Part shown: piece after piece, positions 32,338-49,271 of the stretch
Position numbering within the stretch: position 1 is the stretch's first letter
How the letters are laid out: every line of letters begins with the position of its first letter
Assembly (NCBI GenBank): GCA_037134895.1
Contig: JBAXLI010000009.1
Coordinates: 3,855-67,854 of the forward strand
Direction of reading: 5' to 3'
DNA length: 64,000 nt
Source of the DNA: Bacteroidota bacterium
Lineage (GTDB): Bacteria > Bacteroidota > Bacteroidia > Bacteroidales > FEN-979
The notes under the pieces: model-generated
What the model was told of the DNA's origin: nothing
Database searches by the model: none
The model's input: only the letters and a program-made list of their open reading frames with translations
Program-made: the position numbers and the translations under genes

Positions 32338-32345
32338 TATATTTG
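32338..32345 (+). promoter_or_regulatory. -7 box TATATTTG upstream of the TPR-AraC gene
   Basis: The TAnnTTTG match overlaps the track start (32343), so the ATG at 32382 is the more likely start. Confidence 0.4.
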
Positions 32346-38631: not shown

Positions 38632-38697
38632 ACGGATTTATAAATCCGCACCGGGTGATCCTTTTTAAGCTGAAGATTCACGTACGGATTTATAAAT
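38632..38697. promoter_or_regulatory. Candidate operator: perfect 16-nt palindrome CGGATTTATAAATCCG (38633-38648) plus a second 14-nt copy ACGGATTTATAAAT (38684-38697)
   Basis: Read directly from the sequence. The copies are 52 nt apart, about 5 helical turns. They sit in the 268-nt divergent intergenic region, 40-100 nt upstream of the -7 box of the 8-gene operon. Confidence 0.4.
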
Positions 38698-38736
38698 TCA
38701 ACCTATAAATACTTGTATTTACCAGTCTATAAAAGA

Positions 38737-38744
38737 TATATTTG
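38737..38744 (+). promoter_or_regulatory. -7 box TATATTTG (with TTG at 38713-38715, 21-nt spacer) for the 8-gene operon
   Basis: It matches the Bacteroides TTTG/TAnnTTTG promoter architecture, 75 nt upstream of the ATG at 38819. Confidence 0.45.
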
Positions 38745-38818: not shown

Positions 38819-39841
38819 ATGATCATGAAAAAGCTGATTCTTTTTTGTTTAGTACTGTGCTTGTTTATCCTATCAGGATTGAATACCGGGAGAGCTGCAG
38901 TAAGCAGTACCGCTAATTCGATTCTTACTGTTTCTTCATCAATGCTTGTGCAGGGCGCCGATCAATCCGTGAAAGCTGATGCCACTTCAGCCACAACCGC
39001 TGAAACAGACAAACCGTTTAACTGGAAAGGCCTCATAATCGGGCTTTTCTTTCTTAGCTTCTACGGATATGCAATTGTTATGATTATTGTCACGCTTGTC
39101 CAGGCGAGGGCCATTAATACCATCACCAAGGAAGAATTCATGAGTCAGAGAAAACTGGCAAATAAATCGGAGATGGCAACTGAAGAGGAAAATCAACAGG
39201 CCTTGGCTTTGATCAATGAAGCGTACTTTTCCTGGAAAATTGTTTCTGAGCCGGGAGAAGAGGAATTGCGCAGCCCTGTGACGATGAGCCAGTTAAAAAA
39301 GAGCAGAGAACTGCATGCACAGGCTGCAAAAGTAATGCCGACCGATAATAAGGTGGTTGATCGTTTCAATACAATGGCCGGAGTCATTAACAGTTCGGAA
39401 ACAAGAAGTTTCTCAGGCTCATGGAAGCTGATCATTGTCGCTGTTGTTGCCTGCTTTATCACATATCTCATGACAAAGAGCTATGATCCGGGAATCTGGG
39501 CCTGGCTGAAAGGCTTCTGGTTTATGCCAATGGGAATTATTATGTATTACTTTGCAAGTCTTGCCCCGGCATTTCTGCAGGACAAACGTGGCCGCTGGTT
39601 CAAAGGAAAGAATATTCACAATGTTTTGATCGCTACCGTTTTGGGTCTGTTCCTTGCTACTCCTGCTACTGAAACCTACGTTACAAAATGGAGTGATGGC
39701 CGCAAGACAAAGTCAGAGGAATTCAATCCTGTCTTTTTTGTCATGATGTTCCTCGCATTCATGGTCCTGATGTTGCTCGGGTTCCTGATTATCATATTTG
39801 CAGGGCTCAATTTTATCAGGAACTACCTGATTTATATATAG
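38819..39841 (+). CDS. Operon gene A: hypothetical polytopic membrane protein
   Basis: 340 aa. Order is signal peptide (LILFCLVLCLFILSG), an S/T/A-rich linker, TM (LIIGLFFLSFYGYAIVMIIVTLV), and a ~130-aa charged helical loop. At least 4 TM helices follow. No family recognised. Confidence 0.55.
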   Translation: MIMKKLILFCLVLCLFILSGLNTGRAAVSSTANSILTVSSSMLVQGADQSVKADATSATTAETDKPFNWKGLIIGLFFLSFYGYAIVMIIVTLVQARAINTITKEEFMSQRKLANKSEMATEEENQQALALINEAYFSWKIVSEPGEEELRSPVTMSQLKKSRELHAQAAKVMPTDNKVVDRFNTMAGVINSSETRSFSGSWKLIIVAVVACFITYLMTKSYDPGIWAWLKGFWFMPMGIIMYYFASLAPAFLQDKRGRWFKGKNIHNVLIATVLGLFLATPATETYVTKWSDGRKTKSEEFNPVFFVMMFLAFMVLMLLGFLIIIFAGLNFIRNYLIYI

Positions 39842-39865
39842 ACTATTATTAAACTGATATTGATT

Positions 39866-41539
39866 ATGAAACGATATAGTATTTCGATAGTACTTCTCCT
39901 TATATGCTCATTCGTTTTCTCCCAGCAAGCCATCCCAGCCGATGGCTTGCTGGGTTTTTTTAAGCTCGACGGCAGCTCCAAAGAAACTGACGGACGCATT
40001 AAGCCAGGGAAGAGCCAGGGAGTAAAACCTGCAGCTGACCGATTTGGTAATCAGGGTAAAGCAAGCGGATTGTCATACGATTTCAAAAAAGGCAAAAGAA
40101 GCAGTATTTCAATTCCGCTTGACATCAATCAGTCGAAACAGCCTTTTCTTACTGTTTCTTTCTGGATATGTTTGAATACCAGTAACATGGAGTCTGGTAT
40201 TTTATACCAGTCCGACAATGACTGGAGCCAGACTGATCATTACCGAGGGATCTATGTTGAGCGTGAGGGTGGTTTAATAAAGTGGACAGCCTGCTGCGGA
40301 AGTGACGGCAGTTTAGTAGGACCTGAAGTCCTTGCAAAGAGCTGGACGTTCATTGCCCTGGTTTATGATCGTGACGACCAGGCTTTGCGCATGATTGTCA
40401 ATGACAAGGTATATGCCAGCCCGGCAAAAATGAGGGACGGGGCAGGTAATCTCAGGATTGGACCTTTCGACGGACAGGTTGATGAACTCAGAATATACTC
40501 GAGGGTTCTAACCCTTCCTGAACTGGAAGCTCTTTATGGGAAACCCATTACAACAGATACCTCTGAATACGCCATCCTTAAACGGGAAGATTATAAAAGC
40601 AGGATGAAGAAGGAAGAGATGGACAAGGTTCAGCCAAATATGACCTTTGTGGTGTCTGAAGATAAGTTTCCAGTTCATGATTCTGCTGGCAGTAACAATT
40701 CCGTTGCATTCCTTTCAAAGGGTGACACTTTCAGGATCCTGAGCATAGTGAAAAAGTCGGCTTTGGTTCTTATTCCCGACGGCCGGCAGGGATATATGAC
40801 CATCAGTTCTATCAATGACGGAGCTTACCTCAAAGGAAGCAGTTACATGGCCCACGAGGCGAAAGTAATTCTCGGAAGCATTTTTAACTTCACCAATATC
40901 AGGTCATGGATCGTTGCAGTATTGTTTGCTATCGTCCTGTATTTTGTTTACAGGAAGTACGACATTATAGACAATACCCTAAACCGGATCGGAAGACGGG
41001 ATCCTCTGTACCAGGGTGGTTCAAAAAGTGAAGGAGGAATCTCTGGCAATATCCTGAATAAAGTTTTTCCCTTAAGGCGGATGAGATGGTGGCCATTGAC
41101 CATAGGTGCAATTCTGGCCCTGGTTGTTTTCATTGCGCTCATATGGAACGGAGGGGAAACGGAATGGTTCATCAACAGCGGTTTCAGCCTGATACCTTCG
41201 GGTTACACCAGGACCATACACTGGGTGCTTTACATCACGTTTATGACACTGATGTTCATGTATATTGTTATGATCATCGAGAGTTTTGTGGTTGTAGGGC
41301 CCATCATGGCCATTCCCAGGATACTCATTTTATCGATCCTCATTTGCATGGCAATACTGGTAACTTACTATTTAAGTATATTGATAGTCATTATTGCAAT
41401 CGTTATGCTTGTACTTTACATTATTGCAGCAGGAGGCTCGGAAAGCAAGTATAAGTGCCCTCACTGTTACCGGACGTTCACCTCGAGCGCCGGCTCCAGC
41501 GGTACCTGTCCGCATTGCGGCGGGGGAGTCAGAACCTAA
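39866..41539 (+). CDS. Operon gene B: LamG-like + SH3-like + 4-5 TM + C-terminal zinc-ribbon protein
   Basis: After the signal peptide comes a LamG/Laminin_G_3 pattern (LTVSFWI..., ALVYD..., GNLRIGPFDGQVDELRIYSRVLTLPELEALY). An SH3b-like stretch follows (PVHDSAGSNNSVAFLSKGDTFRILS...GRQGYMTISSI). Hydrophobic helices come next. The end is KCPHCYRTFTSSAGSSGTCPHCGG, a CxxC-x15-CxxC ribbon. The ATG is at 39866; the track start at 39860 is TTG. Confidence 0.65.
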   Translation: MKRYSISIVLLLICSFVFSQQAIPADGLLGFFKLDGSSKETDGRIKPGKSQGVKPAADRFGNQGKASGLSYDFKKGKRSSISIPLDINQSKQPFLTVSFWICLNTSNMESGILYQSDNDWSQTDHYRGIYVEREGGLIKWTACCGSDGSLVGPEVLAKSWTFIALVYDRDDQALRMIVNDKVYASPAKMRDGAGNLRIGPFDGQVDELRIYSRVLTLPELEALYGKPITTDTSEYAILKREDYKSRMKKEEMDKVQPNMTFVVSEDKFPVHDSAGSNNSVAFLSKGDTFRILSIVKKSALVLIPDGRQGYMTISSINDGAYLKGSSYMAHEAKVILGSIFNFTNIRSWIVAVLFAIVLYFVYRKYDIIDNTLNRIGRRDPLYQGGSKSEGGISGNILNKVFPLRRMRWWPLTIGAILALVVFIALIWNGGETEWFINSGFSLIPSGYTRTIHWVLYITFMTLMFMYIVMIIESFVVVGPIMAIPRILILSILICMAILVTYYLSILIVIIAIVMLVLYIIAAGGSESKYKCPHCYRTFTSSAGSSGTCPHCGGGVRT

Positions 41540-41542
41540 GTT

Positions 41543-42823
41543 ATGAAACGAGAGGAATTCGTACTATATCGCACCTTCCCGTCGGATGCCATCAGTGATG
41601 GATGGAAAGCCGGGATCGATATTTCACATGTTGCCTATGGAAGCAGGAGCTGGGCAGTTTTAATGGCCGAACAAACGGGCTTCACAAGTCAGCGGTATTT
41701 TCAGAGGGATGATTTCCCATCCAAAAGTATTGATGATGGCTGGAAAGAGAATTATTACATTACCAATATTACCTGGGGGGACTCGACCTGGGTCCTGATC
41801 ATGTCGGAGGGATGCGGATTTACCGATCAGCAATGGAGATGCGGTAGCAAATTCCCTGCCAGGGACGTCGAGAAAGCTATCAAGGCGGGGTTTCATATTT
41901 CTTTCGTGACCTATGGACAGGAACGCTGGGTTGTGGTGCTTTCGAGAACTGAAAGGACATATGAGCAGAAATGGGAAATGTCGAAGGACTTTCCTGAGGA
42001 GGCCATTGAAGAATACTGGAACCAGGGATATATCATAACTTCCCTGGCCTATGGCGACCAGAAGTGGCTGCTGGTTGTCTCCAAAGGAAGCGAGGTGTTA
42101 TACCAGAGCTGGTCTTTCCGCCGCAGCTTCCCGGAGTCGGAAATTTCAGAGAAACGTAGTGAAGGGTACTGGGTTTCAAGTCTTACATATGGAAACGGTC
42201 TCTGGGTTGTTGTGATGTCGATGACTGAAGAGGAATACCAGAAACGGACAACTCAAAAGCCACAGGAAACAAAGAAAAAACCTAGGATTCCCAAACCCCG
42301 GGAACAAACCCCGGTGCAATCTTCCGACACTTCAGCCCCTGATGAAGTGAAATTTGAACTGGCGATGGGTGAGTTGCGAAAGCTCACTGGCCTGGCTAAG
42401 GTCAAGGATGAAGTTGATGCCCTGATGAAATACATCAAAGTCGAAAAGTTAAGGAAAACAAGGGGACTGGAGAATGATTTCGGGCAGGAAGCCATTGATA
42501 CCTTGCTTAAACGAATGGAAGACGAAAGGGATAAGCTTATTGTTATCCTTGCAGGGTACACGACCCTGATGAAAAAGGTTGTCGACTCAAACCCGGGACT
42601 TCCTTCAAGGTCTACCAGGTCTTTCATCTTCAGCAATTATTCGGTTAATGAGATGACAGAAACTTCCTGCTACAACTGCAAAAAAAAAGGGGATTTTATT
42701 TTAAAAGATTCTATTGAACAGATTTCTGATTATTTTTCTAACTTTGAAGGGAGGACCTCAAGCGATTTCGGAAACGCAAGATTTGTAAGAAATCTTTTCG
42801 ATAAGACGGTGCAGGAACTTTAA
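41543..42823 (+). CDS. Operon gene C: five tandem ~46-aa repeats fused to a CbbX/SpoVK-type AAA+ remnant lacking Walker A/B; possibly degenerate
   Basis: The repeat pattern is FP..xI...W..GY.I[TS]...YG...W.VVMS......Q.W, five copies across residues ~12-242. The C-terminal part has LTGLAKVKDEVDALMKYIKVEKLRKTRGLE, joined directly to NDFGQEAIDTLLKRMEDERDKLIVILAGY...NPGLPSR...FGNARFVRNLF. This is the AAA+ family pattern with the P-loop core missing. See the finding for the in-frame TAA. Confidence 0.6.
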   Translation: MKREEFVLYRTFPSDAISDGWKAGIDISHVAYGSRSWAVLMAEQTGFTSQRYFQRDDFPSKSIDDGWKENYYITNITWGDSTWVLIMSEGCGFTDQQWRCGSKFPARDVEKAIKAGFHISFVTYGQERWVVVLSRTERTYEQKWEMSKDFPEEAIEEYWNQGYIITSLAYGDQKWLLVVSKGSEVLYQSWSFRRSFPESEISEKRSEGYWVSSLTYGNGLWVVVMSMTEEEYQKRTTQKPQETKKKPRIPKPREQTPVQSSDTSAPDEVKFELAMGELRKLTGLAKVKDEVDALMKYIKVEKLRKTRGLENDFGQEAIDTLLKRMEDERDKLIVILAGYTTLMKKVVDSNPGLPSRSTRSFIFSNYSVNEMTETSCYNCKKKGDFILKDSIEQISDYFSNFEGRTSSDFGNARFVRNLFDKTVQEL

Positions 42824-42921
42824 ACCAGGCTTGCTTATATTGACAATCCTGCAACAGAAGAACTCAGTACGATCACAAAGGAGGATTTTTTTCAGGCAAT
42901 AAAAAAAGAAAAAACAACATC

Positions 42922-44757
42922 ATGAAAAGGATTCTGATTATTGCTGCATTACTGATAACGGGGTTCTTGTATGCACAGGATGCCGTTAAAAGCGGATCTA
43001 TGTTAAAAGGAAACGAGTCAGCGGGGAAATACGACCGTGTTTCACTCACCATGCTGATGCTTTCTATGCCGGGTGAGCGTTATACCGATGACATTAAAAC
43101 CGTGTTCAGGGATGTTCACATTCCCGACAAATTCAATGACAACCTTGTAACAACCCGGTTCCTGAACCCATCCCTTCAGAGCAACAAGTCTGGCAGTCCG
43201 ACTTATAATTTCACGAATCCCGGCAATGGAGTAATAGGTGGCCCGGAACTGAAAAATATAATGGTAAACGGCAAGGTTTCCAACCAGATCATTGCAAAAT
43301 GGTTCGGAAGGAAGCCTGATGGTACTTTTTCGGAAGACGTGCTCAAGGAAAGAGGCTTGTACAATGCTGTTGACGGGGATGTGCTCATTGCCAATGCCAG
43401 TGTGGCTAAACAAAGGCTGAGTGACCAGGGAGAGCGGATGATAGGCAGGAGCTTTATTATTGTAATGGATTATAACTGGGTAAGAAGTGTGGCAGAGATC
43501 CGTTCGGGAACCGACGATAAGAGCAAGGCGATGGCTTCGCAATATGCCGATAAAAACGGTTATGTTGGCCAGGGCCAGGCCTATATTTTCCAGCTCGTCT
43601 GGAATGACTCGGTACAGTCTGTTTTCTATAATGATTTCTGGGCAGGCCCTAATGACAAAACCTCGGTCATCCAGGCCCGTGAGAAGGCCTTTAACGAAGC
43701 CCGCTTCGAGGTACGGTATCTTTTAAGTGTGTCGGTGGATGGCGATGGTACCCAGCCCAACCCCGATACATTTCTCGGAAAGCTTACCAGGCAGAAGTCG
43801 AGGGACGAATTATTTCAGAAGCTGGTTTATACAAGCATCGACAATGCCGTATTCAAGATTGAAAGGGTTGTCGAAGATTTTAAAGTCAAAGTCCCTGTTG
43901 CTGCCATCCATCCAATACGGGCAAAAATTGGCCGTAAGGAAGGGCTGAGGGTCGACCACCGCTATTACGTATTTGAAGCGGTGCAGACCGACCAGGGTGT
44001 AAAAATGAAACGAAGGGGTGTGATCAGGGCTACAAGTAAGATTGCCGACAACCGCCAGGTTGCAACCGGAACCACATCCGCAGAAATGATGTCAAAATTT
44101 TACCAGGTTGCCGGGCGCAGGCTTGACGTGGGCATGAGGATGCAGCAACGAAATGATATAGGCATCGGGATCAACCTTGGAGTAATTGCACAATCATCAG
44201 ACTATTCGAACCTGTTATTCACAGGTGGGCTGGAATATAATCTCTCCCCGCTGCTCAGCCATATTATCAGGCGGATACCCCACTCAATCAAGCTGGGGGT
44301 GGATTTCAGTTACGGCACACCCAAATATCCTATCGACTACCAGACCCTTCTCCCGGGGTTTGTTCCACCTTCAGATGCTGCGACGGAATTTAAGCTTTCA
44401 ACAATGCGCTTCAGTTTCAGTCTTTCAAAGGATTTTCACTTTTTCAGGGTGATGCGTTTTACTCCTTTTGTAGGATATGCAATGGAAACTGCGAAATTCA
44501 ACTCCGATCTGGTTTATTATTACGGGTATGACAAATCGAAAGACTTTACAAAGATTAAGAAAGACAGTACCTATGCTAAGATCAATTTCTTTACCGTAGG
44601 GGCAAAACTCGGGATCAACATCACAAGTTTTATGCAGCTGATGCTTTATTTCAATGCCCTCGGGCCAAATTACAAGGGATATGACGCGGGACTCTATCAG
44701 CCAGCTATTAAAAACAACTGGATGGAGTTCGGGGCCTTCCTGCATTTTGAATTTTAA
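42922..44757 (+). CDS. Operon gene D: putative outer-membrane protein (soluble N-terminal region + C-terminal beta-barrel)
   Basis: 611 aa with signal peptide MKRILIIAALLITGFLYAQ. The last ~200 aa show alternating hydrophobic beta-strand periodicity (IKLGVDFSYG, MRFSFSLS, FFTVGAKLGINI). The terminus is ...FGAFLHFEF, ending in an aromatic residue as in OMPs. Confidence 0.55.
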   Translation: MKRILIIAALLITGFLYAQDAVKSGSMLKGNESAGKYDRVSLTMLMLSMPGERYTDDIKTVFRDVHIPDKFNDNLVTTRFLNPSLQSNKSGSPTYNFTNPGNGVIGGPELKNIMVNGKVSNQIIAKWFGRKPDGTFSEDVLKERGLYNAVDGDVLIANASVAKQRLSDQGERMIGRSFIIVMDYNWVRSVAEIRSGTDDKSKAMASQYADKNGYVGQGQAYIFQLVWNDSVQSVFYNDFWAGPNDKTSVIQAREKAFNEARFEVRYLLSVSVDGDGTQPNPDTFLGKLTRQKSRDELFQKLVYTSIDNAVFKIERVVEDFKVKVPVAAIHPIRAKIGRKEGLRVDHRYYVFEAVQTDQGVKMKRRGVIRATSKIADNRQVATGTTSAEMMSKFYQVAGRRLDVGMRMQQRNDIGIGINLGVIAQSSDYSNLLFTGGLEYNLSPLLSHIIRRIPHSIKLGVDFSYGTPKYPIDYQTLLPGFVPPSDAATEFKLSTMRFSFSLSKDFHFFRVMRFTPFVGYAMETAKFNSDLVYYYGYDKSKDFTKIKKDSTYAKINFFTVGAKLGINITSFMQLMLYFNALGPNYKGYDAGLYQPAIKNNWMEFGAFLHFEF

Positions 44758-44775
44758 TCAAACACTGAAACAAGT

Positions 44776-45282
44776 ATGAAAACTCTGAGAATCCTTTTTC
44801 TTTTTTTATTGGTAAGCGGATTAAGTTCTCCCGCTTTTACGCAATCTAAAAGCAAGAAAAAACTTGCCGGTTACACGATTGACAATTACGAAATTGAATG
44901 TGTGGGAGTGGGATCAGAAGGAACTAAACTCTGGAAGGTATGGGGTTACGGAAAAAAGCCCGATGTGGCGATACTCCAGGCAAAGCGAAATGCAGTGCAT
45001 GCCGCCATTTTCAAGGGAGCCTGGGTGGGAAAATGCCCGAAGACAGAGCCTCTTGTGTCAGATCCTGCCGTTGAGGAAAACAACCAGGAGTACTTCGATA
45101 AATTTTTCGAGAACGGAGGCACATACCTGAGTTTTGTTGCCCTGAGCGGCGACGGGATGGAAGAAAGGGTGAAGGTTGGGAAGCAATACAAGGTTGCAAT
45201 CGTGGTATCGGTCATGTATGCCCAGCTGCGAAAGGAGCTTGAGAGGGCAGGAATAGTGAAATCATTGAATAACGGCTTTTAA
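44776..45282 (+). CDS. Operon gene E: small secreted protein
   Basis: 168 aa with signal peptide LFLFLLVSGLSSPAFTQ. The motif GVGSEG...AILQAKRNAVHAAIF is weakly reminiscent of LPP20-type periplasmic lipoproteins. Confidence 0.5.
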   Translation: MKTLRILFLFLLVSGLSSPAFTQSKSKKKLAGYTIDNYEIECVGVGSEGTKLWKVWGYGKKPDVAILQAKRNAVHAAIFKGAWVGKCPKTEPLVSDPAVEENNQEYFDKFFENGGTYLSFVALSGDGMEERVKVGKQYKVAIVVSVMYAQLRKELERAGIVKSLNNGF

Positions 45283-45294
45283 ACATCAGGGGAT

Positions 45295-46242
45295 ATGAAA
45301 AATATTTTTATCGCAGTTCTTTTAACGGCCTTCTCGGCAATAGCCTTCGGCCAGGCCAAAAAGCCAACTATAATGGTTATGCCCAGCGATGTATGGTGCC
45401 AGAAGAACGGGTTCATGACAGTTTACGATAACCAGGGCACACAGCAGAGCGTACCTGATTACAAGAAAGCCTTGCAGAATGACCCGGATCTGCTGCTTGT
45501 CATTGCCAAGATTAATACCATGATGACCGACAGGGGTTTCCCTTTGAAGAACCTCGAATCGGTTATTAAAAATAACGAAAACCAGGCGGCCCAGGACAAC
45601 ATGAGGACGAGTAAGGCTGGCTCTGCGCTGGCCGAAAGTCCGCTCGACAAACTGAAGAAAGCTGCCAGGGCTGATATTATCATGTATCTCACTTATACTA
45701 TCAACCAGACCGGGCCCAAAAAATCGGTTACATTTAACTTGCAGGGCATCGATGCCTATACCGGGAAACAAATCGCCGGGGCACAGGGCACCGGACAACC
45801 TTCCTTTTCGGCCGAACTCCCTGTCCTGCTCGAAGAAGCTGTGATCGCCCATCTTGACAACTTCAATGCCCAGCTCCAAAAACATTTTGACGACCTCTTC
45901 GCAAACGGACGTGAGATCACGGTTAGGGTACAGATGTGGGACAATGGCTCCGGCACCGACATGGAAACAGAGTACGGAGGCAAGGAACTGAACGAGATCC
46001 TTGATGAATGGATGGCTGCGAATACAGTCAAAGGCCGTTACAGCAAGTCGGAGTCGAGCGAAAATTACATGTTCTTCGAGCAGGTGAGGATCCCACTGTT
46101 CAACGAATCAGGAAAGTCCCAGGATGCGAAGGATTTTGTTCAGTTACTGCGGAAGTTCCTGAAAGACCCGCCTTACAGCCTGAGCTGCAAAGCCGATATG
46201 AACGGGCTTGGGGCAGGACTGCTTTATATTGGAGAAAAGTAA
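45295..46242 (+). CDS. Operon gene F: secreted protein of unknown function
   Basis: 315 aa with signal peptide IFIAVLLTAFSAIAFGQ. The mature N-terminus is AKKPTIMVMPSDVWCQKNGFM. No catalytic motif recognised. Confidence 0.5.
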   Translation: MKNIFIAVLLTAFSAIAFGQAKKPTIMVMPSDVWCQKNGFMTVYDNQGTQQSVPDYKKALQNDPDLLLVIAKINTMMTDRGFPLKNLESVIKNNENQAAQDNMRTSKAGSALAESPLDKLKKAARADIIMYLTYTINQTGPKKSVTFNLQGIDAYTGKQIAGAQGTGQPSFSAELPVLLEEAVIAHLDNFNAQLQKHFDDLFANGREITVRVQMWDNGSGTDMETEYGGKELNEILDEWMAANTVKGRYSKSESSENYMFFEQVRIPLFNESGKSQDAKDFVQLLRKFLKDPPYSLSCKADMNGLGAGLLYIGEK

Positions 46243-46260
46243 ACCTTAAAAGGAATTCTT

Positions 46261-47235
46261 ATGAAGAAGATTTTGCATTTTTTACTGCTCATGGTTGTAT
46301 TCTCCCCCTTTGCCACTCATGCTCAGAATACCCAGGGAAAGACCGCAGATGTTGGAAGATTATCCCTCACACCTGTTGTGTCCGATGAGGTTTCAGCCAT
46401 CCCTGCCGAAGCAAAAAACTATCTTGCCAATAAACTCCAGCAGATAGCCACCCTTAACGGGCTGGGCGGCAAAGCCCATAATCCCTGGTTTGTGATAACG
46501 GCAAACATATCGGTGGTCTCGAAAGATGTTCTTGCAGGTCCTCCCCAGATGATTGCCCAGAACCTTGAAGTTACGCTGTATATTGCCGATTACAGGCAAA
46601 AAACCGTACTGAGTACATTAAGCCTTTCGGTCAAAGGAGTTGGCACAAACGAAACCAAAGCTTTCATGGAAGCGATAAAGAATATCAAAGCGGTCAATCC
46701 GGAGATCAAGCTGTTTGTCGAAAACGGAAAAAACAAGATCATTGAATTTTACAATTCAAACTGTGATTTTGTATTGACAGATGCGGAAACTAAATGTGCC
46801 CAGAAGAAATACCAGGAAGCGATCTTTACACTTACTGCGGTACCAGATGTGTGCAAAGATTGTTACATGCAGGCAAACAAGGCAGTAGGCCCGATCTACC
46901 AGCTCTATGCCGATTTTAATTGCAAAGTCATGCTGAACATGGCTCAGAATGCCTGGAATGCACGGCCGAACAGTGCAGGTGCAGAACAGGCTGCAAGGGC
47001 CCTTTCAACTATTGACCCCGAAGCGGCCTGCTATGCAGACGCAAAACAATTCATGACGCAGATCGCACAGAAGGTGCTTGAGGATGAGAAGCGCGATGTG
47101 GCTATGGAAATGAAAGTTCATGACGACAAGGTTGATCTTGAAAAGCAACGGATCGAAGCCGCCCGGGCCGTTGGAGTGGCTTACGGGACAAACCAGCCTC
47201 AGCAGTCATACAATTTCAAAGGATGGCTTTGGTAG
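46261..47235 (+). CDS. Operon gene G: secreted protein of unknown function (Cys-rich helical C-terminal half)
   Basis: 324 aa with signal peptide ILHFLLLMVVFSPFATHAQ. Six Cys residues lie in the C-terminal half (NSNCDF, ETKCAQ, PDVCKDCYM, DFNCKV, EAACYA). Confidence 0.5.
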   Translation: MKKILHFLLLMVVFSPFATHAQNTQGKTADVGRLSLTPVVSDEVSAIPAEAKNYLANKLQQIATLNGLGGKAHNPWFVITANISVVSKDVLAGPPQMIAQNLEVTLYIADYRQKTVLSTLSLSVKGVGTNETKAFMEAIKNIKAVNPEIKLFVENGKNKIIEFYNSNCDFVLTDAETKCAQKKYQEAIFTLTAVPDVCKDCYMQANKAVGPIYQLYADFNCKVMLNMAQNAWNARPNSAGAEQAARALSTIDPEAACYADAKQFMTQIAQKVLEDEKRDVAMEMKVHDDKVDLEKQRIEAARAVGVAYGTNQPQQSYNFKGWLW

Positions 47236-47254
47236 AAATTTTTAATCAGGAAAC

Positions 47255-48568
47255 ATGAGAAAAGTATTATCAGCAATAAGCATCAGCCTGCTTGTTTTAA
47301 TGATATCGGCTGCTGGCATCTGCGCCCAGGAAAAGGTCATTGAAAAAAGCGGGAAAAAGCCCGCCTGGGTGAACTCGGTCGAAAAAGGATATATCATCGA
47401 GATGGGCCATGGGACCACTGCCGATGAGGCAAAGGAAAAAGCCATGCTGCAGATCAAGGAATCTATGATACGCTCTGTTGCCGACCTGGTTTCTTCCAGT
47501 ACCACCATGACCTCCATTGTAAAAATGACAAACAACAAGTCGCAGATAAACGACGATTTCACCACGGCGGTTCGGTCGAGGACTGCTAAAATGCCTTTCA
47601 TCAAAGGGATCTCGGTGAGCAAGGCCAGCGATTTTTACTGGGAGAAGGTGAAGGATCCGAAAACCGGTGCAGTTTCGGTGAATTATCATATCAAATATCC
47701 ATTCCCAAACTCAGAGCTCAATGCGATCATTGCTGAATTCGAGAAGGATATGAAGGAGAAGGCCATGATGGTTGAGGCCCTCTGCCAGCCTGCAGCGAAT
47801 TCAACGAACCTCGATGAAATCGTTCAGAAATTCAGGGAACTGCTGAGCCTGATCCCCCAGCTCGAGGAACCCGTTAAAACCAATGCCCTGGTTTGTGAAG
47901 CTACCTACAGGAACCTCCTGAAATCCTTATCCATCCTTTCAACAGCATCTTCGGCGGGCAATCTTTCGTATATCATCAGCTCAGGGGGTAAGACCTTCAG
48001 GTCGACGTCGAAACCCCTTATTAAATCGAACTGTGCAGGGAACTTCACCTTCACCACATCCGCCGACACCAGTAAAATAGGATATTCCTATAATGGATGT
48101 TATGAAAGCCAGGCGAATAAGGTGAGCGTGGAATACCATTTCGAAGACATCACAATGAAATCGGAATTCCCTTTCGAGATTGGCGCAGGCAAGATTGAGT
48201 TTTCCCTGTCCGACGGGGTCTCCATTACCGAAACCGATGGTGATTCGCTAAGCATCAGGCAGTGCCAGGTAAGGGTGAACCTGAATTTGAAATTCGCCAC
48301 CGGTTTTATCGTTAAACGCATCACCCTCGAATTGCCGGGAGCAAGTCCGGTAAGGTTTGAAGGACTCAGTATCAAAGTGAGCGGAAAGGGGCTGCATGCG
48401 ATAAGCGCCGAAGGCAGTGCAATGATCAGGAAGAGCACGGTCTCGTCGAGGCAGGGCCTGGGAAACCAGGCTTCAGGAAGCATTGAATACTTTGACCCCA
48501 TGAGCGGGACAACTGCTGTTTACAAGTTCTACAACGAAAAAACCGACATTCGTTTATTGCAACAGTAG
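47255..48568 (+). CDS. Operon gene H: secreted protein of unknown function
   Basis: 437 aa with signal peptide SISLLVLMISAAGICAQ. The N-terminal block KPAWVNSVEKGYIIEMGHGTTADEAKEKAMLQIKESMIRSVA is LPP20-like. The C-terminal half is predicted beta-rich. Confidence 0.5.
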   Translation: MRKVLSAISISLLVLMISAAGICAQEKVIEKSGKKPAWVNSVEKGYIIEMGHGTTADEAKEKAMLQIKESMIRSVADLVSSSTTMTSIVKMTNNKSQINDDFTTAVRSRTAKMPFIKGISVSKASDFYWEKVKDPKTGAVSVNYHIKYPFPNSELNAIIAEFEKDMKEKAMMVEALCQPAANSTNLDEIVQKFRELLSLIPQLEEPVKTNALVCEATYRNLLKSLSILSTASSAGNLSYIISSGGKTFRSTSKPLIKSNCAGNFTFTTSADTSKIGYSYNGCYESQANKVSVEYHFEDITMKSEFPFEIGAGKIEFSLSDGVSITETDGDSLSIRQCQVRVNLNLKFATGFIVKRITLELPGASPVRFEGLSIKVSGKGLHAISAEGSAMIRKSTVSSRQGLGNQASGSIEYFDPMSGTTAVYKFYNEKTDIRLLQQ

Positions 48569-48591: not shown

Positions 48592-48599
48592 TACCTTTG
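48592..48599 (+). promoter_or_regulatory. -7 box TACCTTTG upstream of the START-like gene
   Basis: The TAnnTTTG match lies 24 nt after the gene H stop. It overlaps the track start codon (48597), which I therefore reject. Confidence 0.4.
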
Positions 48600-48617: not shown

Positions 48618-49271
48618 TTGATAACATTACCAAAACAGAGGCGCAGGGATAAATCCTCGACTGCGTTGTTCCCTATACTCATTTTCTCAGTGATGTTTGT
48701 TTTGAGTTTGAGCTCGTTCGCCCAGACCTGGAATTTCATAAAAGAAAAAGACGGGATAAAGATCTATACAAGAACCCCCGAAAATTCAAATTTCAAATGT
48801 TTCAAGGGAGAAACGGTATACAATACCACCATGGATAAAATTAATAATTATATCGGTAATGTTGAGAACATCAACTGGTGGGACAAAAATTTACGGGAGA
48901 TCAAGGTGTTGTCATCTGTACGCGATAAGGAGATGAGGTATTACCTGATCTATGATGTCCCCTGGCCATTAAGTGACAGGGACCTTTGCGTGGAAGCAAA
49001 GATCACTACCGATCCGTTGACGGGCGAGAGGGTGGTATTTGCGAAACCTTTGCTTGATGTAGTCCCTGAAAAGGAAGGCATAGTAAGGATCAGGAATTAC
49101 TGGCAAAAATGGACCCTTAAGCCCATGGGGAATAATAAAGTTCAGGCTGTACTCGAAGGGTTTGTCGACCCGGGAGGAAGTGTGCCGGCCTGGTTGTATA
49201 ACATGGTCATCGTTGACACCCCGCTCAAGGTGATGAGGGGGATTAAATCCCTGGTGGAAGAAAAGAATTAA
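48618..49271 (+). CDS. START/SRPBCC lipid-binding domain protein (secreted)
   Basis: The block TWNFIKEKDGIKIYTR...YLIYDVPWPLSDRDLCVEAKITTD...GGSVPAWLYNMV fits the START-domain pattern. The start is uncertain. TTG at 48618 gives a good signal peptide (RRRDK...LFPILIFSVMFVLSLSSFAQ). ATG at 48693 is an alternative. Confidence 0.65.
   Translation: MITLPKQRRRDKSSTALFPILIFSVMFVLSLSSFAQTWNFIKEKDGIKIYTRTPENSNFKCFKGETVYNTTMDKINNYIGNVENINWWDKNLREIKVLSSVRDKEMRYYLIYDVPWPLSDRDLCVEAKITTDPLTGERVVFAKPLLDVVPEKEGIVRIRNYWQKWTLKPMGNNKVQAVLEGFVDPGGSVPAWLYNMVIVDTPLKVMRGIKSLVEEKN

Follow-up and report, generated by a model that had tools for sequence, protein, structure and literature searches.

Two probable gene modules, one lineage-restricted and one phylum-wide, in an eight-gene envelope array of Bacteroidota

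Eight tightly packed open reading frames (ORFs), here named A to H, are located on a 64,000-nt stretch of contig JBAXLI010000009.1 from a Bacteroidota bacterium (hereafter, the window). An initial annotation of this DNA had read all eight as parts of a single trans-envelope system that includes an ATPase partner, a reading that was not supported by the present analysis. With good confidence, the array can be described as a composition of two modules. The first, A-B-C, is lineage-restricted and, judged from its sequences, looks like a membrane-sensing or membrane-associated set. The second, consisting of D-E-F-G and the accessory gene H, is probably a phylum-wide, uncharacterised periplasmic assembly that is tethered to the outer membrane in the clade of the window and in many others. 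On balance, the best overall explanation of the locus is the juxtaposition of these two modules, with D-H encoding a possible scaffold linked to the outer membrane.

Results

Conservation of the D-E-F-G cassette

One genome per species was scanned for DUF6175, the Pfam family of F, and at least 583 loci were confirmed. The counts given here are for the best 80 of these, from taxa that included Flavobacterium, Chitinophaga, Saprospira, Cytophagales, Bacteroides, Prevotellaceae, Paludibacter and Muribaculaceae. In 73−76 of the 80 loci, covering 70+ other Bacteroidota species, tblastn and ORF clustering gave the order D-E-(E')-F-G, where E' denotes the frequent duplicate of E. The D family was found in 73 loci, and H in six only. 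This gene order was kept across orders of Bacteroidota at protein identities of 26−60%. None of A, B or C was found within ~10 kb of D, E, F or G in the 74 loci from other species. Of the single envelope-spanning complex initially proposed, the genes were real, tightly packed and co-directional, and D-E-F-G was syntenic across Bacteroidota; A, B and C failed the same test, since they were never beside D-G in other species.

In a census of the 141 proteins flanking 45 of the loci, the only recurrent families were OMP_b-brl (10), OMP_b-brl_2 (7) and DUF3575 (4), the other flanking proteins being unrelated housekeeping proteins. Among the 141, neither an inner-membrane nor an ATPase partner recurred. 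Because the order is kept and no such neighbour recurs, D-G was taken to be a self-contained exported cassette that has no inner-membrane or cytoplasmic partner. Two further candidates for a recurrent partner were unconvincing, namely a TPR-histidine kinase (11 of 80 loci) and proteins with a tail of the type IX secretion system (T9SS; 8 of the 141 neighbours).

Gene F and its fusion to gene E

F matched DUF6175 (PF19672) at 405.1 bits (cut-off 23) over positions 1−293 of the 293 in the profile, and is a member of this family. More than 6,600 relatives were counted at 90% clustering, with ~60% identity across the phylum. No paper on DUF6175/PF19672 was found in the literature. The AlphaFold2 (AF2) model of F had a mean predicted local distance difference test score (pLDDT) of 85 and a predicted template modelling score (pTM) of 0.78. 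When this model was submitted to Foldseek, the list of matches consisted mostly of GNA1162 (E 2e-4), CsgG, PelC, LpoB, XCC0632 (DUF330, PqiC-like) and the FlgT/LPHT ring. Foldseek probabilities were 0.9−1.0, and template modelling scores (TM-scores) normalised per target reached 0.64 for PelC and 0.53 for GNA1162. Proteins like GNA1162, CsgG, PelC, LpoB and PqiC are located at the periplasmic face of the outer membrane. At E ≤ 1, the Pfam CsgG family (PF03783) was matched by none of A-H.

E and G had no Pfam family match. An HTH_CodY match on the C-terminal helix of E was judged spurious from Pfam scans of all E-family members. Many members of this family were 456−520 aa long, and all eight that were scanned consisted of E followed by a complete DUF6175 domain. 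These E-F fusions (P0324, P0348, P0367, P0374, P0386, P0394, P0398 and P0432) were distributed over many separate 50%-identity clusters of public proteins. A further protein, P0321, was a tandem E-E protein. Since natural E-F fusions exist, E and F were considered to act together.

Gene D carries a small C-terminal barrel

The ORF of D (42922−44757, + strand) encodes 611 residues. In its AF2 model (pLDDT 83), an alpha/beta and helical region was followed by a small beta domain and by a barrel of eight strands. This barrel (residues ~412−611) matched the N-terminal domain of OprF, the transmembrane domain of OmpA, Ail and NspA with a Foldseek probability of 1.0 and TM-scores per target of 0.56−0.70. 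Together with the eight strands of the model, the terminal Phe identified it as an OmpA-like barrel, confirming the outer-membrane-protein-like C-terminus ending in ...LHFEF that had been described from the sequence. The N-terminal part weakly matched FlgT and the LPHT ring of Vibrio (probability 0.92−0.96). In Pfam, D produced only a weak, sub-threshold match to DUF6588 and none to OMP_b-brl; a precomputed PF13505 match was present for its homologue P0194.

Alignment of the D-family core showed that the barrel is fused to D in 12 of the 73 D-bearing loci, all of them in the wider clade of the window. Where D had no barrel, a small outer membrane protein (OMP) gene often adjoined the cassette. 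A hidden Markov model of the D barrel did not detect these separate small OMP genes at other loci, and therefore their link to D is one of position and Pfam class only. As modelled, D is predicted to consist of a ~410-aa periplasmic part with an 8-stranded anchor, and not of a large pore; this fusion is limited to the clade of the window. The outer-membrane conduit initially assigned to D was accordingly replaced by a small anchor barrel of the OmpA/OmpX type.

Genes G and H and the export signals of D-H

The five proteins D-H were all predicted to be exported, D-G and the accessory H by the Sec route, in line with the signal peptides first noted for E-H. In hydropathy plots, D, E, F and H exhibited an N-terminal hydrophobic signal segment only; the N-terminus of G was below the threshold and reads as a signal peptide. 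The predicted cleavage in all five precedes Gln (AQ/, FG/Q, T/Q; for F, ...AFG/QAKKPT, the slash marking the cut). A Gln at position +1 was also found in 62 of 78 D, 99 of 128 E, 74 of 80 F and 72 of 75 G sequences. Bacteroidota tend to have Gln at this position in substrates of signal peptidase I. Within the module 2 families, lipoproteins were restricted to some E' paralogues, and D, E, F and G nearly always had signal peptidase I sites. Four regular-expression matches to a lipobox in the F family were rejected, as the Cys was inside the core of the signal peptide, followed by the same xQ site, and not at the cleavage position.

Pfam scans of all G-family members gave only weak TPR/ARM matches. 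H matched LPP20 (PF02169) at 13.5 bits (E 0.1), below the cut-off of 25.9. Of the two LPP20-like motifs suggested among E-H, that of H was hence sub-threshold, and that of E was not confirmed, LPP20 giving no match in E or in any of 30 E-family members.

Genes A-C and the variable slot behind them

A and B were found in a close clade only, with orthologues 65−73% and 70−78% identical, respectively, and relatives of C were likewise confined to a narrow clade. When related contigs (labelled L087 to L096) were compared, four layouts were seen between C and the next gene, which encodes a START-domain protein. In L090 and L094, A-B-C (C being 821 aa) was directly followed by the START-domain gene and a minus-strand LamG gene, and D-H were missing. 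In L087, A-B-C was followed by another cassette and then the START gene. L089, L095 and L096, the first two near-identical, contained A-B-C-X-Y-D-E-F-G-H as one tight 10-gene array. In the window the order was A-B-C(decayed)-D-E-F-G-H-START, and both X and Y were cleanly missing. Because of these four layouts, the slot between C and START was regarded as variable and the modules as separable.

The slot of L087 (10715−14490) encoded a caspase-like Peptidase_C14, a 168-aa ORF, a protein with TPR and SH3_3 domains, CsgG fragments and Fe-ADH. The genes X and Y were in the region 14167−16417 of L096. X was a 539-aa lipoprotein with no Pfam match and an acidic stretch immediately after the lipobox Cys; Y was a 202-aa lipoprotein with a sub-threshold LPP20 match (17.9 bits), and its gene had a homologue in locus L080, located between G and H.

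Locus layout and DNA signals

The ORFs A-H were all on the + strand, and their coordinates and gaps were exactly those first reported: 18 or 24, 3, 98, 18, 12, 18 and 19 nt. The first gap is 18 nt with the alternative TTG start of B at 39860 and 24 nt with the ATG start. The apparent gap of 98 nt is formed by the end of gene C. When the TAA of C at 42821−42823 was read through, the frame continued to an in-frame TGA (42923−42925) that overlaps the ATG of D (ATGA), which is the 4-nt overlap that had been predicted. The same region was present, identical, on several metagenomic contigs of an uncultured Bacteroidota lineage, with C at 426 aa on all of them. The features are listed in Table 1.

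Table 1. Coordinates of the genes and DNA signals of the array (positions in the window)
Feature	Coordinates	Strand	Evidence or remark
Perfect 16-nt palindrome CGGATTTATAAATCCG, upstream copy of operator-like repeat	38633..38648		Sequence and repeat finder
Operator-like block GTACGGATTTATAAATTCAACCTATAAATACTTG, holds second palindrome copy, ends in -33-like TTG	38682..38716	+	Near-invariant in five relatives
Bacteroidota-type -7 box TATATTTG (TAnnTTTG), 75 nt 5' of the ATG of A	38737..38744	+	GATAyATTTGCCG in relatives
A: signal peptide and polytopic membrane protein, module 1	38819..39841	+	Hydropathy
B: signal peptide, periplasmic Laminin_G_3, ~4−5 transmembrane segments, C-terminal Zn-ribbon, module 1	39866..41539	+	
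C: DUF7477 repeat domain and remnant of double CbbX/SpoVK-type AAA+, decayed	41543..42925	+	ORF ends at 42823
D, N-terminal part (~residues 1−411): signal peptide, alpha/beta and helical region, small beta domain	42922..44154	+	D-family core
D, C-terminal 8-stranded OmpA/OmpX-like outer membrane anchor barrel, ends ...LHFEF	44155..44757	+	Foldseek, AF2
E: small exported protein	44776..45282	+	Often duplicated elsewhere; fused to F in other organisms
F: DUF6175, two alpha/beta domains	45295..46242	+	Pfam, AF2, Foldseek; most conserved component
G: exported, four conserved Cys, TPR-like helical middle, C-terminal GW(L)W tail	46261..47235	+	75 of 80 loci
H: exported accessory protein, weak LPP20-like N-terminus	47255..48568	+	Window clade, three relative contigs, six other loci
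TAnnTTTG box before next gene (START domain), marks array end	48592..48599	+	

The promoter and palindromic operator that had been placed in front of the array were both located, the palindrome occurring in two copies, and so was the new promoter box behind H. The upstream palindrome copy was common to relative L087 only; the second copy was at 38684−38699. In an alignment of the DNA upstream of A from five related contigs, a near-invariant GTACGGATTTATAAATCCAACCTATAAATACTTG was followed after ~20 nt by GATAyATTTGCCG. The second palindrome copy and the -7 box were kept in all five, including those that have no D-H, and were equally conserved there; the operator/promoter block was therefore assigned to A-B-C. 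A further TAnnTTTG inside C, at 42739, could serve as a start for D-H, as far as can be told from the motif. A generic scan for sigma-70 promoters and terminators was uninformative for Bacteroidota (28 sites against 17.5 expected).

The 5' coding region of B contained a perfect hairpin of 14 bp with a T7 run behind it (39921−39954). Its interpretation as a terminator or attenuator was rejected, because the arms track a conserved QQAxPxDGLLGFF peptide and the T-run was not kept in relatives.

A membrane-anchored regulator with TPR and an AraC-type HTH was encoded at 32343−34298 (+). In L096, the gene immediately in front of A was 52% identical to it. The GGATTTATAAATCC palindrome is a candidate binding site of this regulator.

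Domains of A and B and decay of C

A had no Pfam or NCBIfam match above cut-off, and its description as a signal peptide plus polytopic membrane protein was upheld by hydropathy. For B, the Laminin_G_3 domain (40 bits, Pfam), a bundle of ~4−5 transmembrane segments (hydropathy) and a C-terminal CxxC...CxxC with weak zinc-ribbon matches agreed with the initial annotation; the SH3-like domain it had added was without database support. B may be a single-gene, sensor-like protein, its predicted parts being a periplasmic LamG domain, a transmembrane bundle and a cytoplasmic Zn-ribbon.

C exhibited no hydrophobic segment. Pfam identified DUF7477 and AAA_lid_6 (26.4 bits; cut-off 24.3), the lid being shortened by the TAA, and there were partial matches to the NCBIfam models of SpoVK, EccA and CbbX. 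Residues 279−311 of C aligned to CbbX 24−56 and residues 310−449 to CbbX 141−280, leaving CbbX 57−140 absent. No Walker A or B motif was found in C, the CbbX alignment jumping from residue 56 to 141. Homology to the CbbX C-terminus and to the intact orthologue ran on past the stop codon. This orthologue (L096, L090) has 821 aa in the order DUF7477, AAA, lid, AAA, lid. C 1−309 corresponded to orthologue 1−309 at 79% identity and C 306−457 to orthologue 670−821 at 70%; the intervening orthologue residues 310−669 (360 aa, with both P-loops) were deleted. The TAA was at a Ser codon of the relatives. Since the 426-aa C was identical on several independent metagenomic contigs, these lesions are not sequencing errors. 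By its sequence, C is a fixed, pseudogene-like relic, and because the P-loops are absent and the stop is premature, no ATPase activity is predicted to be possible from C in this genome. The repeat domain and AAA+ lid remnant first described for C were accordingly retained, and the role of ATPase-type partner was not.

Searches for known systems and flanking genes

The statement that no known machine could be recognised in A-H was borne out. No match above the Pfam or NCBIfam cut-offs was obtained for Tol-Pal, Lpt, Lol, Bam, T9SS or efflux systems, curli models were also unmatched, and no enzyme was found. The best match to a known machine was TolQ for A (21.7 bits against a cut-off of 221). 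A PADLOC scan of the locus identified no defence system, the sole match being Cas8b for H at chance level (E 0.0067, 14 bits).

The array is flanked by two genes for secreted proteins, at 49268−50560 (-) and 36973−38232 (-). One product was of the LamG/Big_5 type, with a weak fimbrial (TafC-like) match, and the other had Fib_succ_major and a T9SS C-terminal sorting domain. Both adjoin A-B-C, not D-H, in relatives. Further downstream, a CHAD-domain protein, a heavy-metal P-type ATPase (HMA/E1-E2) and a PAS/HWE histidine kinase (51330−56803, +) were apparently unrelated; their order was kept in near-identical contigs.

Discussion

A probable complex and a possible scaffold

The proteins D-G probably form one physical complex. 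That this complex forms a ring or scaffold beneath the outer membrane is a serious but tentative proposal, made by analogy and because of the remote fold similarities of F. In such an assembly, D would be held in the outer membrane by its barrel and would expose its FlgT-like part in the periplasm. F would bind E and assemble into an oligomeric ring or lattice at the inner, periplasmic side of the outer membrane. The TPR-like, disulfide-stabilised G and the LPP20-like H would be adaptors or peripheral subunits. The role of the assembly would then be that of a scaffold in the envelope or a vestibule in the periplasm, and not that of an energised trans-envelope conduit. More speculatively, D-E-F-G might, together with a small OMP barrel and, optionally, LPP20-like subunits, constitute an undescribed, phylum-wide periplasmic ring or scaffold organelle, a non-flagellar counterpart of the PelC/CsgG/PqiC rings or of the flagellar H-ring, with a role in outer membrane architecture or in guiding cargo.

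Several observations weigh against this proposal. The fold matches of F are remote (TM-scores per query 0.2−0.3, sequence identity 9−16%), and ring formation by F is an analogy. F has no lipobox, unlike CsgG, PelC, LpoB, PqiC and FlgP. Profiles of D, E, F, G and H searched against all PDB sequences returned nothing meaningful; for E, two alignments were used, the second built from 60 diverse representatives. In 60 loci D is present without a fused barrel, many of them also without an adjacent barrel gene, and for this reason outer membrane attachment is not a general feature of the cassette. D-E-F-G has so far been linked to no substrate, enzyme or phenotype. As to the separation of the modules, the window and L089, L095 and L096 keep both in one tight co-directional array, and no -7 box was found in the C-D gap, so that co-transcription and perhaps a local functional link of the two are possible.

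Alternative explanations

The last of these observations also favours the rival view that all eight genes encode one trans-envelope machine, with A and B in the inner membrane, C as ATPase partner, D as outer membrane conduit and E-H as accessories. The genes are co-directional with gaps of 3−24 nt, apart from the 98-nt pseudo-gap, a single recognisable -7 box is upstream of A and none is between C and D, and L089, L095 and L096 have both modules in one 10-gene array. However, none of the 74 D-G loci of other species has A, B or C, and D-H are absent beside A-B-C in L087, L090 and L094. C has lost its P-loops and acquired a nonsense codon, yet D-H are intact. The 8-stranded barrel of D is too small for a conduit and is dispensable in most lineages, and the promoter/operator stays with A-B-C whether or not D-H follow. 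The single machine was thus considered very improbable. Here, tight co-directional packing on its own gave the false impression of an eight-part machine, and comparative genomics resolved it into two modules and one decayed gene.

The main alternative for D-G, though an unlikely one, is that they are the outer membrane end of an export system of the PelC/PelB or CsgG/CsgE/CsgF type, in which a ring of F would funnel a polymer or a protein, possibly E itself. The best folds for F (CsgG, PelC and GNA1162) are components, or presumed components, of outer membrane export, small OMP barrel genes recur beside the cassette, and the slot of L087 holds fragments of the CsgG family. Yet no glycosyltransferase, polymerase, amyloid-repeat subunit or large channel (16+ strands) was found in or near the cassette in the 45 loci, and neither csgE/F, csgA/B, pel genes nor a large barrel were found in the window or among the 141 neighbours. 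The barrels present are 8-stranded, with no pore. F lacks the transmembrane hairpins and the lipid anchor of CsgG as well as a Pfam CsgG match, and the fusion of E to F in several lineages fits a subunit better than a cargo. At the other extreme, D-G could be unrelated periplasmic proteins that travel together without forming a complex, the eight-gene adjacency being due to chance. No function, interaction or phenotype is known for them, and profile-profile comparisons detected no homology among E, F, G and H, with a probability below 8% for hidden paralogy of E to H or of G to F. Against this, the gene order is kept across Bacteroidota orders at the identities given above, fusions of E to F and of a barrel to D exist, and F is highly conserved phylum-wide, features that are typical of obligate complex subunits. 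Chance association was rated most improbable, and a complex of D-G, probably linked to the outer membrane by the barrel of D in the window, was preferred.

Significance

Bacteroidota dominate gut, soil and aquatic communities, and a large part of the biology of their envelope is without parallel in Proteobacteria. The D-E-F-G cassette, with at least 583 representative loci, has no name and no literature, and a Pfam family exists for one of its subunits (F) only. Conservation like that of F usually marks an obligate multi-subunit assembly. If the proposed ring or scaffold under the outer membrane is real, it would be a new structural element of the Bacteroidota envelope, and one that is tractable for cryo-electron tomography and genetics in Flavobacterium or Chitinophaga.

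Comparison with known systems

The decayed gene C is related to CbbX, SpoVK and EccA, since its lid and C-terminal helices align to CbbX 141−280 and to EccA1 (E ~1e-16). It differs from them in the deletion of both Walker A/B cores and in the lid shortened by the stop codon, and its N-terminal DUF7477 repeat domain is absent from CbbX, SpoVK and EccA.

D shares with the OmpA/OmpX/Ail/NspA/OprF-N family the 8-stranded barrel (Foldseek probability 1.0) and the terminal Phe. Unlike in OmpA, the barrel follows the periplasmic domain instead of preceding it, and an OmpA_C peptidoglycan-binding domain is missing.

CsgG and PqiC work as rings. The lipoprotein PelC has been described as a 12-mer ring under the PelB barrel (PMC12141448). 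The AF2 model of F matches the structures of this PelC/GNA1162/CsgG/LpoB/PqiC group. F is set apart from it by a signal peptidase I signal in place of a lipobox and by a second, C-terminal alpha/beta domain. It also has no match to Pfam CsgG, LpoB or DUF799, and its neighbourhood is free of pel, csg and pqi genes.

Bacteroidota are not known to be flagellated. In the flagellar H-ring of Vibrio, FlgT and the lipoproteins FlgP and FlgO form concentric rings of small alpha/beta-sandwich proteins attached to the outer membrane (bioRxiv 10.64898/2025.12.02.691832). The periplasmic part of D and F both match FlgT (3w1e) and the LPHT-ring chain 8z5n_0 weakly. H and Y give sub-threshold matches to LPP20, a Pfam family that includes FlgP-like lipoproteins. 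Module 2 differs from the H-ring in having no flagellar genes, in TM-scores of 0.14−0.25 and in a beta-barrel anchor instead of lipidation. Its likeness to the H-ring is an analogy of architecture, and not family membership.

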